Source of the DNA: Candidatus Nomurabacteria bacterium
GTDB lineage: Bacteria > Patescibacteriota > Minisyncoccia > Phycocordibacterales > UBA5272
DNA length: 64,000 bases
Direction: 5' to 3'
NCBI GenBank assembly: GCA_037130925.1
Contig: JBAXSC010000004.1
Location: forward strand, 4,156 to 68,155
In this document: piece after piece, positions 13,200-61,894 of the stretch
Layout of the letters: every line of letters starts with the position of its first letter
Numbering within the stretch: position 1 is the first letter of the stretch
Notes under the pieces: generated by a model
The model's database searches: none
What the model saw: only the letters and a program-made list of their open reading frames with translations
Told to the model about the DNA's origin: nothing
Made by a program: the position numbers and the translations under genes

Positions 13200-13369
13200 A
13201 AGTATGATATGAATTGCTATAACTTTATACAATTCAAAGAGACATTGCAAATAATTAAAAAGACAATATTTATCAAGCTCTTTTTTGAATTTAAAAATAC
13301 AAAATTATAAAAGACAAAAATAAAATATTAATAAAGGACAGTTATCCACAGTTATTATTAGTTAAACAG

Positions 13370-13397
13370 TTGCAAATATTATTATGTCGTTTATAAT
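13370..13397 (+). promoter_or_regulatory. Near-consensus sigma70 promoter of an orphan RNA unit
   Basis: TTGCAA (13370-13375), a 16-nt spacer, then TATAAT (13392-13397). Confidence 0.6.
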
Positions 13398-13403
13398 ACA
13401 TAC

Positions 13404-13786
13404 AGGGTGAGCAGTGACATACAAAGCTTCACCCAGCTTATGGGTATACAAATAAAGTATTCGTCAGCTGGACTCGCCAAACAGATCTTTTAAAAAAAAT
13501 AAAATAAATAATAGCACCCAAACTTATATTTTACTTCATCTTTTCAATAATTTTAGATGAAGTAACTAATTTTTGTCCTTTTATGTGAAAAATAAATCAA
13601 AAGGACAAACTCAAATACTAGAGGATGATACCTCATTAAAAACAATCAATGTGTTTCGTTTTCGTGTCCAGCGAATTGTATTTAAAGATACAGCTCGCTG
13701 GACATGAGAAGACTCCTAAAAGCTTCCCAATCATGTCTAGCGTCAGGTAGAGCACTGCTCCCGGCTATATTTATGGGGAGTTTTTT
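13404..13786 (+). ncRNA. Unclassified structured RNA candidate (~380 nt)
   Basis: Promoter upstream and an intrinsic terminator (CTCCC-N13-GGGAG-T6, 13758-13786). No ORF of 60 aa or more. Perfect stems at 13532-13564 (9 bp), 13573-13608 (10 bp) and 13666-13703 (9 bp). A possible closing helix pairs GAGCAGTG (13409-13416) with CACTGCTC (13753-13760). Confidence 0.5.
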
Positions 13787-13825
13787 ATTTGTCTAAACAT
13801 ACAAATATATAATATATAAAATAAT

Positions 13826-13861
13826 AAAAGGCTTACACGTGTAACACGGTAAGCCTTTTTT
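13826..13861. terminator. Bidirectional terminator
   Basis: AAAAGGCTTAC...GTAAGCCTTTTT. The loop contains the palindrome TTACACGTGTAA. Confidence 0.7.
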
Positions 13862-13880
13862 AATTGTCTTAACTATACGT

Positions 13881-15031: not shown

Positions 15032-15164
15032 TTTTATATTTTTATACAATTGTGATATATTACCGAAATACTGAAAGGCTTTTATTAGGAGAAATACAGA
15101 AAATCTGACTTTATAAATCTTGTGAAACTTAACAACGTTTGAAAAACAATTAACTATTTATTTT

Positions 15165-17899: not shown

Positions 17900-17902
17900 T
17901 TG

Positions 17903-17973
17903 TGCGGCGTAGGAGAATCGAACTCCTGTCTCATCCTTGGCAAGGACGTGTTCTACCACTAAACCAACACCGC
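17903..17973 (-). tRNA. tRNA-Gly (GCC)
   Basis: The hand-folded cloverleaf has an anticodon loop ttGCCaa and a T-loop GTTCGATTC. No CCA is encoded. Confidence 0.9.
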
Positions 17974-18414
17974 AATAATGTTTATTATTTTAACATAAAA
18001 CTTTATTTTTACAAAAAATAATTAAAATTAATTATCAATCCCCTATTTTACCATCTTTTAATACTTTTAATAAAATGAATACACTTTTTATATTTATAAA
18101 ACAAATAAATATATAGATATTACTAAAGTTTAAAGATAATATTATTTGTCATAAAAGACTGAAAACTGAGTAAAACGACAAGGGTAACAAGTTTATAAAA
18201 GTCAAAAAAGTGGACAACTAAGTGTATATGTGTATAAACCGACACCAAAAAAGGTCTTTTACACAGTTTTGTCGATTTAAAACAAGCCTTATTTTTCAAA
18301 GTAATATTTTTATGCTTAATAAATAACCCTTATTTTATAATGACTTTTTAATAATGTCTTTTATTTTACACAGAGATATCCACTTATTTGCCGCTAATTA
18401 TCAACTAAATTATA

Positions 18415-18670
18415 CAATTAGTTTCACGTGAAACTAATTGTACTCGCCCCAAATAAAAGTGTTAGCAAATAAACATAAAAACTATCGTTTCTTGTGAAAG
18501 AAGACTATAAGCATTTCAACCTTGATATTTATTAACTAGCCTGTTACACATGAAATAAATACACAACTTACTAATCTTACAGAGACTTTAAATAGGCCTG
18601 TTTCTTGTGAAAACAATCGATCTTTCAAATACAGACTTTTATGATAAATAACAAATATTTCATGTGTAAC
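18415..18670. repeat. Array of five phased palindromic boxes (consensus TTTCAYGTGAAA)
   Basis: Box 1 is a perfect 26-bp palindrome, CAATTAGTTTCACGTGAAACTAATTG (18415-18440). The others are GTTTCTTGTGAAA (18487-18499), GTTACACATGAAA (18543-18555), GTTTCTTGTGAAA (18600-18612) and an inverted TTTCATGTGTAAC (18658-18670). Centre-to-centre spacing is about 56-66 bp. Confidence 0.7.
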
Positions 18671-18718
18671 GTAATTAATTCATTATCAACATGCTAAAAT
18701 ATAAATAATATAGCTTTT

Positions 18719-19108
18719 ATGGCAGAACATAATGATATAGGCAAAAAAGGCGAGGAAATAGCATTAAATTACTTAATAAGTAACAACTTTATCTTTGTGG
18801 AACAAAACTACAATTGTAAAGTTGGTGAAATAGATATAATAGTTAAAAAAGGGGATAAAATTTGTTTTGTTGAAGTTAAGACAAAAAGAGTAAAGGACTT
18901 TAAAGAAATAGAGAACATGGCTTTTAGACCAGAATACAATCTCTCTAAAGATAAGAAACGTAAAATGTTAAAAGCTGTTAAGAATTATCTAAACTATAGA
19001 AAAATAGATGAATCTAAAAACAATATAGAAATAATAGGAATAATGGTCTTTATAAATATAGAAATAAAAAAAGCAAAAATTAAAATGTATGAAAATTTAA
19101 TATTGTAA
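18719..19108 (+). CDS. yraN: YraN-family (UPF0102) endonuclease-like protein
   Basis: GEIDIIVKKGDKICFVEVKTK core motif. Confidence 0.8.
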   Translation: MAEHNDIGKKGEEIALNYLISNNFIFVEQNYNCKVGEIDIIVKKGDKICFVEVKTKRVKDFKEIENMAFRPEYNLSKDKKRKMLKAVKNYLNYRKIDESKNNIEIIGIMVFINIEIKKAKIKMYENLIL

Positions 19109-19167: not shown

Positions 19168-20289
19168 ATGATAAAATTTATAAAAGCATTAATAAAACAC
19201 TTTAAGACAATTTCTTTTATTTTCGGATTTAGTATAGATCTTTTCTTTTTACCAAAAGTAACATCTCCTTTATATATCTGGGTAGGACCTTTTGATATCG
19301 CTTTAGTCTTTGTTCTTATTCTAATAAGACAAATAATAAGAAAAGCCCTCAAAAAAAGAGATAAAAAATATAAAGAAGAAGTAAAACTTGCAGAACAAAA
19401 GGGAACAGAAGTTTCTCGTGAAACTATAAATGAAAAAACTAGCGCTCATAAACTATTTGAAAGAATGAATAACTGGGTCACATATATCGTTTCATTCTTC
19501 TTAGGAACACTTTTATCACATGTATTGGTATATTACTTTAGAAGTTCTGACATTTTACAAATGTGGCCAATATTTGCAATAATAATACTTGCGATACTTG
19601 CTAATGAATTCTTATTTGGAGTAGTACCTGATATTTTATTATTCTTTATAGCTACTACATTTTTTGTAATATTCAATGTTCCTATATTCTTAAACAAAGT
19701 AAACAGTAATACTTTTTTGATCTCAATACTAGTATCTGTAATTTTTACTTCTATAATGACCGTAATACTTCAAAGAATATATCTTTCTGGAAAAGAGTTT
19801 ATATTACTTATACTTTTTTCATGCATATTCCCATTTGTATTATTAAGACTGTATTATATTAACTATATTCCTGCTGTACCTTTAGCTTTAGGGGATTCTG
19901 GCTTTTATTCTTATGTCTCAAAAGATAACACTTCTAATAAGACAGACTATATAAGACAAAGTAATGGACTTGTAGAGAATAAAAAATTCTTTTATTTGAA
20001 AGATGACTATTATAATTTCACAAACATAAAAGACAATGGCTTTTATTTCTTCTCAAGTATTATTTCTCCAGCAAATGTCACAGCAGAGATAACGCATGTC
20101 TGGGAAAAGTATGATTATAATAAAAAAGTATGGGTAGAATACAATAGAATTCATTATTCTGTATCAGGAGGAAGAGATGATGGATATAGAGGATATTCAT
20201 TTATTCAAAATATATCTGAAGGGGAGTGGAGGGTTAGAGTTTTGGCTGATGATAGACTTGTCGGATTAAAAAAGATAACAGTTAAATAA
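19168..20289 (+). CDS. Polytopic membrane protein with a DUF2914-like C-terminal domain
   Basis: Multiple TM helices. The C-terminus is ...VSGGRDDGYRGYSFIQNISEGEWRVRVLADDRLVG. Confidence 0.5.
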   Translation: MIKFIKALIKHFKTISFIFGFSIDLFFLPKVTSPLYIWVGPFDIALVFVLILIRQIIRKALKKRDKKYKEEVKLAEQKGTEVSRETINEKTSAHKLFERMNNWVTYIVSFFLGTLLSHVLVYYFRSSDILQMWPIFAIIILAILANEFLFGVVPDILLFFIATTFFVIFNVPIFLNKVNSNTFLISILVSVIFTSIMTVILQRIYLSGKEFILLILFSCIFPFVLLRLYYINYIPAVPLALGDSGFYSYVSKDNTSNKTDYIRQSNGLVENKKFFYLKDDYYNFTNIKDNGFYFFSSIISPANVTAEITHVWEKYDYNKKVWVEYNRIHYSVSGGRDDGYRGYSFIQNISEGEWRVRVLADDRLVGLKKITVK

Positions 20290-20561: not shown

Positions 20562-20825
20562 ATGAATATAAAAGATTTTGATTTTATTATAGATGTAAGA
20601 TCTTCTGAAGAGTTTCATATGAAACATATACCAGAAAGTATAAATGTTTCACTTGATAAAATTGCAAATAATTTTAATGAAACAGAATTATCAAAAATAG
20701 ATAAAAATAAAAAGATTTTATTAGTTTGTGAAAGTGGAGGAAGAGCTGCTTTAGCTAAAGAAATTCTAGAAGAAAAAGGATTTAATAATTTAGAAAATGG
20801 TGGACCTTGGAAAAATTGGAAATAA
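20562..20825 (+). CDS. Single-domain rhodanese-like sulfurtransferase
   Basis: 87 aa with the active-site loop CESGGRA. Confidence 0.75.
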   Translation: MNIKDFDFIIDVRSSEEFHMKHIPESINVSLDKIANNFNETELSKIDKNKKILLVCESGGRAALAKEILEEKGFNNLENGGPWKNWK

Positions 20826-22400: not shown

Positions 22401-23896
22401 TGAAAACAGAAATAGAAAATATACTTAATATAAATAAAATTCCAAAAGATGTAATTTGGGTGTGTGAAGAATTATCTAAAAATAATTTTGAAAGCTACCT
22501 TGTCGGAGGATGCGTGCGTGACATGATTATTGATAGAGAACCAAACGACTTTGATATAACAACAAATGCAAAACCAGAAGAAATAGTAAAAATCTTTGGA
22601 ATAGATGACACTGTTTATGAAAATAAATTTGGAACAGTAAGAGTAAAAATCAGAAACGAAAATCAAGAAACAGAAAAAATAATCGAAGTCACAACTTACA
22701 GAACAGAAGGTGACTATGAAGATTTTCGTCATCCAACAAAAGTGGAATGGGGGACAACAATAGAGCAAGATTTAGAAAGAAGAGATTTTACAATTAATGC
22801 TATAGCTTTTGATCCTATAAAAAATAATTTAGTTGATCCATTTAATGGACAAGAAGATATAAAAATAAAAACTATAAAATGTGTAGGGGATTCAGAAAAA
22901 AGATTTAATGAAGACGCTCTTCGTATGCTTCGTGCTATCAGATTTTCAGCACAATTAAATTATGTAATTTCTAGTGAAACATTTTCTGCAATTTTTAAAC
23001 TTTCAAATAATTTAGAAAAAATTTCAAAAGAAAGAATCAGAGATGAATTTTCAAAAATCATAATGTCAGATGAGCCAATGCAAGCTCTCGTCATTTCACA
23101 AAAGCTCGGACTTTTAAAATATATTTCAGAAGAATTAGAATCTTGTGTTGGGGTATCACAAAACGGACATCATACTTATGATGTATTCGAGCATTTACTC
23201 AGATCACTAAATCATGCAGCAGAAAAACAATATGATTTTGAAACTAGAATAGCTGCATTATTTCATGATATAGGGAAACCAAAAACAAAAAGATTTGATC
23301 AAAATAAAAACGACAATACTTTTTATGGTCACGAAGTCGTCGGAGAAAAAATGACAAGAAAAATTTTAGAAAGATTAAAATTTGAAAAAAGCTTTATTGA
23401 AAAAGTTTCTAAACTTGTTCGTTGGCATATGTTTTTCTCTGATACAGAACAAATCACATTATCTTCTGTGAGAAGATTAATAGTTAACATCGGAAAAGAA
23501 AATATTTGGGATCTTGTAAATATAAGAATCTGCGACAGAATAGGATCTGGCACAAAAAAAGAAGAACCATACAGATTAAGACAATTTGAATCAATGATAG
23601 AGGAGGCACTAGTTGATCCAATATCTCTAAAAACTTTAAAAATAAATGGAGAAAAAATAATGGAAATATTAAATGAAAAACCAGGAAGAAAAATCGGATT
23701 AATATTAAACGCGTTATTTGAAGAAGCTATAGATGACGGAAATAAAAATAATGAAGAATATTTAAAAGACAGAACTCTAGAATTAAATAAATTAGATATA
23801 AAAGAAATAGAAGAGTTGGCAAATTCTGGAAAAGAAAAAATGAAAGACGAAAACGAAAAACAAAAAGAAGAAATAAAGAAAAAGTTTAGAGTATAA
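22400..23896 (+). CDS. cca: CCA-adding enzyme / tRNA nucleotidyltransferase with HD domain
   Basis: GGCVRD...DFDITT nucleotidyltransferase motifs, RDFTINA, and HD motifs HTYDVFEH and FHDIGKP. Confidence 0.85.
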   Translation: MKTEIENILNINKIPKDVIWVCEELSKNNFESYLVGGCVRDMIIDREPNDFDITTNAKPEEIVKIFGIDDTVYENKFGTVRVKIRNENQETEKIIEVTTYRTEGDYEDFRHPTKVEWGTTIEQDLERRDFTINAIAFDPIKNNLVDPFNGQEDIKIKTIKCVGDSEKRFNEDALRMLRAIRFSAQLNYVISSETFSAIFKLSNNLEKISKERIRDEFSKIIMSDEPMQALVISQKLGLLKYISEELESCVGVSQNGHHTYDVFEHLLRSLNHAAEKQYDFETRIAALFHDIGKPKTKRFDQNKNDNTFYGHEVVGEKMTRKILERLKFEKSFIEKVSKLVRWHMFFSDTEQITLSSVRRLIVNIGKENIWDLVNIRICDRIGSGTKKEEPYRLRQFESMIEEALVDPISLKTLKINGEKIMEILNEKPGRKIGLILNALFEEAIDDGNKNNEEYLKDRTLELNKLDIKEIEELANSGKEKMKDENEKQKEEIKKKFRV

Positions 23897-60184: not shown

Positions 60185-61531
60185 ATGGACTATAAACAAA
60201 TCTGGGACATGGCCCTATCGAGAATAGAGTTAGAACTCTCTCGTGTAAACTTCAATACTTGGTTTAGAAATACTCAAATCATCAACTATAAAGACGGAAT
60301 AGTGGTTATTGGTGTCCCAAACGAATTTGTTAAAGAATGGCTTTTTCAAAAACACCATAAATTCGTCTTAAGAATATTAAGAGAAATACATGAAGAAGTA
60401 AGAGGAGTAGAATTTCACACAGTTAAATTAGAAACTTTACAAAAAAAGGCGATAGCTAACAAAAATAAAGTTATAGAACCAACAAGTTCATTACCTTTAC
60501 AAGATTTATATATTAATAAAGATGATGGATTGAATCAAAAATACACCTTTAACAACTTTGTGGTGGGTACATTCAATGAATTGGCTTACGCAGCCTCTCA
60601 GGCGATTATAAAGAGTCCTGGAATAGTTTATAATCCTCTCTTTATCTATGGAAATACAGGATTAGGAAAAACACATCTTATTCAAGCGGTAGGAAATACT
60701 ATTAAAAACACATATCCTGAAAAAAAGATCTTTTATACTTCTTTAGAAAAGTATTATTTGGAGTTTGTTTCTGCTACACACAATCAAAAACTCAATAATT
60801 TCAAGGAAAAATACAAGAAATATGATGTTTTTATAATGGACGATATACAATTTATCAACGGAAAAGAGAAAACTCAAGACGAATTATTCCACCTATTCAA
60901 CGATTTACATAATAATAACAAGCAAATTGTCTTTTCTTCTGATAAACACCCTAATTTTATAGTTGGTTTGGAAGATAGACTTAGATCTAGATTTAATCAA
61001 GGTATGATTGTTGATGTAGCCACTCCAGATTATGAATCTAGAATAAATATCTTGAAATCTAAGATTAAAAACCACGAAAAAATAGAGCCGGGGGTTATAG
61101 AATATGTAGCTGAGAGTGTTAATGGTAACATTCGTGAATTAGAAGGAATAATCAACTTTATTCAGGCTCAAATAGAGCTTTTTGACCAAAAAGTCACCCT
61201 GAATAGTATTAAAAACCTTATAAAAAACAATACCAGATCAAAAAAATCAGTATCTATATCAGAAGTTGTTAAAACTGTGGCTGAATATTACAATATTCAA
61301 CAGACTTTTATTTATAATAAGACACGAAGAAAAGATATTGTAAAGCCAAGACAGGTAATAATGTATATTTTAAGGGAGTATTTTGATGTTTCTTATCCAA
61401 CAATAGGTGAGAAATTAGGAGGAAAAGACCATACCACAGTTATCCACTCTTACGAAAAGATCAAAAACGAAAGAAAAGACGATCCACATTTAAATAAAGA
61501 AATAGAAGATATTTATAACACTCTTAAATAG
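60185..61531 (+). CDS. dnaA: Chromosomal replication initiator DnaA
   Basis: Walker A GNTGLGKTHL, MDDIQF, sensor motifs and a C-terminal DNA-binding domain (VKPRQVIMYILRE...GGKDHTTVIHS). ATG at 60185; the track start at 60158 is a TTG. Confidence 0.95.
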   Translation: MDYKQIWDMALSRIELELSRVNFNTWFRNTQIINYKDGIVVIGVPNEFVKEWLFQKHHKFVLRILREIHEEVRGVEFHTVKLETLQKKAIANKNKVIEPTSSLPLQDLYINKDDGLNQKYTFNNFVVGTFNELAYAASQAIIKSPGIVYNPLFIYGNTGLGKTHLIQAVGNTIKNTYPEKKIFYTSLEKYYLEFVSATHNQKLNNFKEKYKKYDVFIMDDIQFINGKEKTQDELFHLFNDLHNNNKQIVFSSDKHPNFIVGLEDRLRSRFNQGMIVDVATPDYESRINILKSKIKNHEKIEPGVIEYVAESVNGNIRELEGIINFIQAQIELFDQKVTLNSIKNLIKNNTRSKKSVSISEVVKTVAEYYNIQQTFIYNKTRRKDIVKPRQVIMYILREYFDVSYPTIGEKLGGKDHTTVIHSYEKIKNERKDDPHLNKEIEDIYNTLK

Positions 61532-61894
61532 GGATATTATTCTATTATGTTTATAAACCAGTTAATAACCTGTTCATAAACTATAGAATAACCACACATC
61601 TCATGTTAATAACTTTGATTGATAATCTATATTATTCATATTTTAAAAAATAAGTAAATAGATAAAAATTTTTAATCCTGTATTCAAAACTAGTTATAAA
61701 CTTTAATATTATTTTTTATCTAAAATAAGCTTTATTTATCAAGATAAAAAACTTATTAACTTTATCAACATAGTTATATTAATAATGTGTTCTTTAAATA
61801 AAAAAGTATTAACCAAGAAAACAGAAATACAAAACATTTAATTTTTAATATTCTTTGAATATTGTTATAATGAATCTATTATAAAGATAAACTT
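61532..61894. other. Candidate oriC (dnaA-dnaN intergenic region)
   Basis: 363 bp, extremely AT-rich and in the canonical position. It contains GTTTATAAAC (61549-61558), GTTCATAAAC (61572-61581), GTTATAAAC (61693-61701) and TTATCAACA (61762-61770). There is no perfect TTATCCACA box. Confidence 0.4.

Follow-up and report, generated by a model that had tools for sequence, protein, structure and literature searches.

A dense, origin-proximal array of parS-like palindromes beside yraN: a probable chromosomal centromere in a Paceibacterota bacterium

The stretch of DNA analysed here (the window) comprised 64,000 nt of a Paceibacterota genome with a GC content of ~27%, and all coordinates are positions in this window. 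Its closest relatives were metagenome-assembled Paceibacterota/Parcubacteria (Patescibacteria) genomes. Between a tRNA-Gly(GCC) gene and yraN lies an intergenic island that carries five related palindromic boxes in front of yraN. The boxes are very likely parS sites (box 1 canonical, the other four degenerate) that are densely packed near the origin and would serve as the chromosomal centromere of this bacterium. The locus holds the following features (palindromic sites carry no strand).

17902-17973, minus strand: tRNA-Gly(GCC), left edge of the island (ARAGORN; Rfam tRNA, 66.6 bits)
17974-18718: the island, bounded by tRNA-Gly(GCC) (minus strand) and yraN
18413-18442: perfect 30-bp palindrome enclosing parS site 1 (inverted-repeat search)
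18420-18435: parS site 1, AGTTTCACGTGAAACT, 14/16 to the consensus, core 14/14
18486-18501: degenerate parS site 2, CGTTTCTTGTGAAAGA, 4 mismatches
18542-18557: degenerate parS site 3, TGTTACACATGAAATA, 3 mismatches
18599-18614: degenerate parS site 4, TGTTTCTTGTGAAAAC, 4 mismatches
18656-18671: degenerate parS site 5, TATTTCATGTGTAACG, 4 mismatches
18719-19108, plus strand: yraN (UPF0102, nuclease-like protein; Pfam PF02021, E = 4.8e-18)

A preliminary description of the sequence had named both flanking genes and located the five boxes, and all of this was confirmed (ARAGORN and Pfam for the flanks). It had also reported GTTTCTTGTGAAA twice (18487 and 18600) and GTTACACATGAAATA at 18543-18557 with an exact inverted copy at 18656-18670, and both observations held. 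The palindrome around box 1 was perfect as claimed, with a length of 30 bp instead of 26. The centre-to-centre spacings were 66, 56, 57 and 57 bp when the boxes were read as 16-mers; only the last had been given differently (58 bp).

In box 1, the core GTTTCACGTGAAAC is that of the canonical chromosomal parS, TGTTTCACGTGAAACA. Table 1 of the review PMC7022226 lists this consensus, as TGTTTCACGTGAAACA or tGTTNCACGTGAAACa, for alpha-, beta- and gamma-proteobacteria and for actinobacteria. Boxes 2-5 fitted this consensus at 12-13 of 16 positions, and the core of site 5, ATTTCATGTGTAAC, was invariant in the alignment with two near relatives (L002 and L003).

The motif was clustered in the window beyond chance. 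With up to one mismatch, the 12-mer TTTCAYGTGAAA gave 13 strand matches where 2.2 were expected, a number reached in none of 100 shuffles, and TTTCWYGTGAAA occurred exactly five times (expected: 0.11). The 16-mer consensus with up to four mismatches matched 20 times in the window, and five of these matches fell inside 250 bp. No tandem unit underlies the array: TRF reported none at the boxes, units of 58 nt could be aligned solely at the box and the box flanks were unrelated.

For comparison, 80 related loci were retrieved via RNase Y. A yraN homologue was present in 33 of them, with GC contents of 28-56%, and the chromosomal synteny of the locus was kept in all 33 genomes. The array region proved to be conserved. 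In the 33 loci, parS-like 16-mers gathered at the yraN start and within the gene, at recurrent offsets of about -40 to -6, +49 to +64, +167 to +203 and +284. Of 52 sites with up to two mismatches, 35 lay in yraN and the 600 bp 5' of it, which amount to 5% of the total length (binomial p = 3e-33); the loci lacking yraN held three such sites in 567 kb. The link between sites and gene persisted where yraN was inverted relative to RNase Y. One locus (L032) had a perfect 16-mer, TGTTTCACGTGAAACA. Five sites shared 250 bp in the window, and five to seven shared ~400 bp in relatives. In the nearest of the low-GC relatives (L002, L003, L006 and L007), the sites were intergenic as in the window, often TGTTTCAYGTGAAACA, and 53-58 bp apart.

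Further parS-like sites in the window lay downstream of the island, mostly inside genes.

19410-19425: site in the DUF2914 gene, AGTTTCTCGTGAAACT, 3 mismatches, read V-S-R-E-T
20611-20626: site in the rhodanese gene, AGTTTCATATGAAACA, 3 mismatches
20645-20660: site near the one in the rhodanese gene, 3 mismatches
22966-22981: weak site in the gene of the CCA-adding enzyme, 4 mismatches

By these sites, the wider region of 18-23 kb is enriched as well. The DUF2914 protein of the window reads EVSRETI at the first of them, and several relatives had two to four stronger sites within the gene of the CCA-adding enzyme. Up to seven motif copies were spread across one yraN gene of 400 bp in relatives. 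Sites in genes were always read in one of two frames: GTT TCA CGT GAA ACA, giving V-S-R-E-T, or TTT CTC ATG AAA, giving F-L-M-K. Variant peptides in relatives were V-S-H-E-T and V-P-R-E-T. Such peptides were imposed on YraN of L032, L041, L055, L067 and others; up to four xSRET peptides occurred in the YraN of some relatives, and three each in L067 and L041. As one DNA word recurs between genes, in three genes and in two frames, it is the DNA motif that selection acts on, and not a peptide or a promoter. The VSRET repeats in YraN clearly illustrate how a DNA-binding motif can shape a protein. Selection on the DNA motif agrees with a centromere but not with an operator.

A parS array calls for a ParB. 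A search by tblastn, a ParB hidden Markov model and phmmer, which covered the window and 85 related loci, returned neither ParB nor ParA; L082, a Logan contig of the same organism, likewise encoded none. The sole ParB-related match in the loci of relatives was a fusion of ParB_N to an N6/N4 DNA methylase on a Candidatus Taylorbacteria contig (L031, 9779-11047), which is a protein of the mobile-element type and not a chromosomal ParB. Metagenomes were scanned for the ENxQRxxLxPxE motif in an AT-rich coding form, which yielded 120 ParB loci, mainly from other low-GC taxa; tetranucleotide similarity failed to sort them. One of these loci (L104) encoded a full ParB (ParB_N, HTH_ParB and ParB_C) adjoining relA/spoT and topA, and an identical protein is recorded under Parcubacteria group bacterium. 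Its best 120 homologues all had the same three domains; the named ones came from Candidatus Paceibacterota, Nomurabacteria, Taylorbacteria, Campbellbacteria, Yonathbacteria and Pacebacteria. Full-length ParB is thereby widespread among metagenome-assembled genomes of the lineage, and its signatures are PF02195, PF17762 and PF23552 and, at the N-terminus, SIFWIEVDKIKPNPYQPR. One ParB of the lineage was 38% identical to Spo0J of B. subtilis over 264 residues (E = 1e-57) and retained the motifs GERRLRA (GERRxRA) and ENLQREDLNP. The gene order miaA - parB - (relA/spoT) - topA - dprA - serS was found in seven loci (among L104 and L206-L215). Almost no parS lay within 10 kb of the parB loci, and among the ParB loci traced none was linked to a yraN locus within one assembly. 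The lineage thus has a canonical ParB, encoded by an orphan gene distant from the parS sites. The literature searched contained no description of parS or ParB in Patescibacteria or the candidate phyla radiation.

A dimeric transcription factor other than ParB could instead use the boxes as an operator array controlling yraN and downstream genes, as the preliminary description had suggested. Sites did lie 5' of yraN in every relative, and box 5, about 30 bp 5' of a -10-like element, was invariant in L002 and L003. This element is the following.

18692-18706, plus strand: -10-like block TGCTAAAAT / TATAAAT close 5' of yraN (alignment, read by eye; putative function)

Within it, AAATATAAAT was kept in the alignment with L002 and L003. 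However, the motif runs through the yraN coding sequence in up to seven copies and recurs in the coding sequences of the CCA-adding enzyme and the DUF2914 protein. It is identical to parS over GC contents of 28-56%, including one perfect 16-mer, no regulator gene is adjacent, and the ParB of the lineage has a canonical helix-turn-helix. We consider such an operator array unlikely.

The island has a second conserved element, a trio of tandem DnaA-box-like 9-mers that overlaps a promoter-like pair.

18204-18245, plus strand: conserved element 5' of yraN, three tandem DnaA-box-like 9-mers with a promoter-like pair (alignment, nhmmer)
18209-18217: DnaA-box-like 9-mer AGTGGACAA
18221-18229: DnaA-box-like 9-mer AGTGTATAT
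18229-18237: DnaA-box-like 9-mer TGTGTATAA
18211-18216 and 18233-18238: promoter-like pair TGGACA and TATAAA, overlapping the trio
18355-18390, minus strand: weak inverted partial copy of the element, containing ATATCCACT and TTTTACACA (nhmmer, E = 0.79)

The consensus of the element in the family was AAAAnTGTGGATAAnnCTGTGGrTAnnGTGTATAAAnGACA, with the promoter-like pair as TGGAyA, 16 nt, TATAAA. The block was kept even in relatives of 45-55% GC, and the first box of the trio was a perfect TGTGGATAA in many genomes. An nhmmer profile of 18204-18245 matched solely 5' of yraN and in yraN orientation, in ~30 of the 33 loci, without a further match in 1.2 Mb; in the window, the element occurred once. 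Most genomes had it 75-175 bp from the yraN start; for the low-GC clade the distance was 350-495 bp, and there the gap between element and gene is occupied by the parS array. The inverted partial copy formed a repeat with 18203-18226 that was 79% complementary and bracketed an AT-rich stretch of 140 nt; this copy was not conserved in the alignment with L002.

The preliminary description had pointed to DnaA boxes in the island. A conserved trio was indeed present, at 18209-18237, and was absent from the 9-mers listed there. Those 9-mers exist as well, two of them 1-2 nt away from the positions given (ATATCCACT at 18376 and TTATCAACT at 18398). Mismatches to TTATCCACA numbered two in ATATCCACT, two in TTATCAACT and one in TTATCAACA (18683). 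Overall, the DnaA-box density of the island was unexceptional for the window. The element is probably a DnaA-bound promoter or a DnaA-binding site joined to the centromere. In Caulobacter, according to PMC6399470, citing Mera et al. 2014, DnaA binds DnaA boxes in the parS region and enables segregation.

The conserved trio, with a perfect TGTGGATAA in several relatives, and the inverted partial copy bracketing 140 nt of AT-rich DNA could also mark a replication origin, either oriC itself or a second DnaA-dependent origin, to which the palindromes would be accessory. The cumulative GC skew over all sites had its minimum at 13-15 kb, and the genes at 14.6-58.6 kb were mostly on the plus strand, both in line with an origin near the island. 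However, GC skew merely tracked the coding strand, over all sites as well as at four-fold degenerate sites, and was therefore rejected as an origin marker. The marker used was the T-A skew at four-fold degenerate sites with the genes split by orientation. The top strand was A-rich over 0-59.8 kb for genes of both orientations, with an equal value and the same sign on either side of the island. The cumulative T-A skew turned at 59.8-60.2 kb, exactly between rnpA and dnaA. This turn lies in the gene cluster rpmH-rnpA-yidC / dnaA-dnaN at 58.6-63 kb, the usual though not invariable place of an origin, and the island is not beside it.

start at 60185, plus strand: dnaA, ATG at 60185, 448 aa as in homologues (Pfam, homologue lengths)
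61532-61894: dnaA-dnaN spacer, probable oriC (DnaA-box cluster; T-A skew turning point)

Relaxed DnaA boxes were most densely clustered at 61.4-61.8 kb of the window. The dnaA-dnaN spacers of relatives (L083-L085) held tandem TGTGnATAA boxes and TGTGTATAA-N3-TGTGAATAA; that of the window had GTTnATAA-type boxes ~12 bp apart right after dnaA and, close to dnaN, a conserved ATCAACA box. In the island, no DnaA-trio repeats were seen by eye, the long AT-rich spacer was not conserved, and in most relatives the element sits 75-175 bp from the yraN start. The skew turning point, the DnaA-box cluster and the spacer boxes of relatives together argue that the origin is probably at dnaA-dnaN and not in the island, and an origin in the island is quite unlikely. 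The suggestion of an iteron-type origin likewise did not hold. Iterons are direct repeats; the boxes are palindromes with unrelated flanks, and the skew turn and the DnaA-box cluster are ~42 kb away. From the array to dnaA and the probable oriC the distance is 42-43 kb, about 7% of a chromosome of ~0.6 Mb (a size taken from contigs of 614 and 631 kb in relatives).

That the array is what remains of a plasmid or phage replicon once integrated here (iterons or a plasmid centromere), also raised in the preliminary description, is scarcely credible: short repeats at regular spacing recall the centromeres of plasmids, F sopC for instance, but no rep, par or integrase genes were nearby, the island had no blastn match in 72,556 plasmids and 50,697 phages, the locus is syntenic in 33 chromosomes and the box flanks are unrelated.

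The parS array therefore remains the preferred interpretation, because the core of box 1 equals the consensus, the sites cluster above chance and they are conserved in 33 loci. Selection at the DNA level, the proximity to the origin, the ParB in the lineage and the DnaA-box trio add to this. Of the several readings offered by the preliminary description, it was the partition site that was borne out, by parS identity, clustering and conservation. Some points weigh against it. Three to four mismatches, in part within the central CACGTG, set boxes 2-5 apart from the consensus, and their binding of ParB may be weak or absent. The sliding-clamp model leaves the regular spacing of 56-57 bp unexplained. 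No ParB was found in the window, in the 9 kb past dnaN (L082), in the 80 RNase Y loci or in three dnaA loci. A ParA-type ATPase was likewise not seen in the window, at the relatives' RNase Y and dnaA loci or beside parB in the seven loci.

In the mechanism that we propose, ParB dimers of the lineage would recognise the palindromes via their helix-turn-helix domains. ParB bound to cytidine triphosphate (CTP) would then close into clamps and slide to flanking DNA, and a partition complex would form over the yraN region. This complex would mark and organise the origin-proximal part of the ~0.6-Mb chromosome. As parB is an orphan without an adjacent parA, the main output may be chromosome organisation and SMC loading, and not ParA-driven transport. 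DnaA probably binds the trio ~200 bp 5' of the array, where the promoter-like sequence is aimed at array and yraN; such binding would link the replication cycle to the transcription of yraN or to the function of the centromere.

More tentatively, and with considerable doubt, the centromere could be a fixed module across Paceibacterota: a DnaA-box trio with promoter, a parS array partly in the yraN coding sequence, a distant orphan ParB and no ParA. If DnaA does bind there, initiator and centromere would be hard-wired, as they are in Caulobacter, in a cell that is very reduced. YraN could then also have a part of its own in segregation or replication; in E. coli, its gene adjoins diaA. The organisms are uncultured and ultra-small, with genomes of ~0.6 Mb, and the locus offers a landmark of the origin-proximal domain for ordering and checking metagenome-assembled genomes. 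It also provides a ParB-parS pair that is simple and can be tested, from a deep-branching and apparently ParA-less lineage. The DnaA boxes beside the centromere could tell whether initiator-segregation coupling of the Caulobacter type is widespread.

Beyond its conserved elements, the island was mainly AT-rich spacer without conservation. One further site was noted by consensus scan only.

17987-18014, minus strand: promoter-like site TTGTAA-16-TAAAAT with TG, positioned for tRNA-Gly

From its position, this is probably the tRNA-Gly promoter. Upstream of the island lie genes encoding HU, ClpP, RNase Y and a protein of 177 aa that looks secreted. A uracil-DNA glycosylase gene stood between the 177-aa gene and yraN in L002 (12443-13135) and L003 (5913-6599), and in the same slot in L004 (3909-4670) and L006 (16221-16922); the window has tRNA-Gly and ~440 bp of AT-rich spacer there. 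The island as a decayed gene was rejected, as no uracil-DNA glycosylase remnant was found in it and no such gene elsewhere in the 64-kb window. A structured RNA gene in the island was rejected as well: no Rfam family matched at the gathering or E-value threshold, and folds of 18120-18300 on both strands were no more stable than shuffles (z-scores of -0.4 and -0.5). The island had been called the longest ORF-free stretch of the window, which is not strictly true. The stretch 840-1673 (834 bp) has merely TTG open reading frames (ORFs) of 60-62 aa, and the island itself carries ORFs of 47 and 58 aa. That ORF-poor stretch is preceded by an odd 115-aa TTG ORF (492-839) of PAxxPxKFE-like repeats, and internal DNA repeats occur at 68-830, within 1-1673.

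The 10-nt match upstream of clpP that had been noted was present, as a half-site alone with six mismatches to the 16-mer. It belongs to a conserved, half-parS-like word, TGTGAAACTTAA (window 15114-15131; L002 9353), ~38 nt 5' of clpP, which is probably part of the clpP leader.

A candidate structured RNA of ~470 nt was observed elsewhere in the window, at 13385-13870 on the plus strand, in a gene-free stretch (13251-13880). Its fold z-score was -9.1, and 15 of 68 predicted pairs covaried. It was 81% identical over 565 nt in L002 and also present in L003, L005, L006 and L007. A terminator hairpin stood at its end (13829-13866), and a parS-like palindrome at 13831 was the loop of this terminator. 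No Rfam family matched the candidate even at E = 1. It contains the blocks GGGTGAG, CCCGGCTTA and GTCCAGC in an unusual order, which we take to be RNase-P-like.

Gene orientation around dnaA was also conspicuous. About 85% of the genes left of dnaA (14.6-58.6 kb) were on the plus strand, and those right of dnaN (L082) were mostly on the minus strand. Genes on both sides point at the presumed origin, head-on to replication, so that orientation and T-A polarity disagree; two relatives (L083 and L084) had no four-fold-site T-A skew of that kind. A type-IV-secretion-like cluster at 44.2-58.6 kb (PrgI, a TraC-like protein, a VirB4/TraG P-loop ATPase, a C39-like peptidase and large unknown proteins) adjoins yidC-rnpA-rpmH-dnaA, and held the same position in L083, L084 and L085.

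Among known systems, the chromosomal parS/ParB (Spo0J) of B. subtilis, Caulobacter, Streptomyces, Pseudomonas and other bacteria is the closest. It shares the 16-bp palindrome tGTTTCACGTGAAACa, multiple copies of which some are degenerate, the origin-proximal position, the tolerance of sites in genes and, here at the level of the lineage, a ParB with ParB_N, HTH_ParB and ParB_C. In contrast to it, the array described here is far denser and not beside parAB, the parB of the lineage is an orphan beside miaA and topA without nearby parS, and the cluster is bound to one gene, yraN, class-wide.

The centromere of Caulobacter crescentus likewise has parS and DnaA boxes adjacent to each other and away from the origin proper, as PMC6399470 describes, and the same review, via Mera et al. 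2014, relates the proposal that the initiator acts at the centromere. The element found here differs in that its DnaA boxes stand as a fixed tandem trio across a promoter-like sequence toward yraN, in ~30 genomes, with putative DnaA binding.

Spo0J of B. subtilis reads N-V-P-R-E-T-K, at the position of a parS site inside spo0J, and this resembles V-S-R-E-T and V-P-R-E-T here. The host genes differ: they are yraN and those of the CCA-adding enzyme and the DUF2914 protein, not parB, with up to four to seven copies per small gene. Outside oriC, DnaA-box clusters are known from B. subtilis (DBCs) and E. coli (datA/DARS), as are DnaA-regulated promoters. They too comprise few tandem boxes, are intergenic and lie tens of kb from oriC; the element here, of putative function, is tied to yraN and the centromere.

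Plasmid centromere arrays, such as F sopC with 12 x 43 bp and P1 parS, share the close, regular spacing of ParB-type palindromes. They differ from the present array in its chromosomal-type sequence, its unrepeated flanks, the lack of an adjacent partition operon and its conserved chromosomal setting. The Noc binding site (NBS, TATTTCCCGGGAAATA) is also a ParB-family palindrome, and boxes 3 and 5 share its A at position 2; the central bases here are parS-like (CAYG / CACGTG), not CCCGGG, and Noc is, to our knowledge, confined to Firmicutes. Against this background, the kind of element is known, a parS centromere, and the arrangement is unusual and conserved: in its density, in the attachment to yraN and the DnaA trio across the class, in the sites within coding sequence and in the distant, ParA-less parB.

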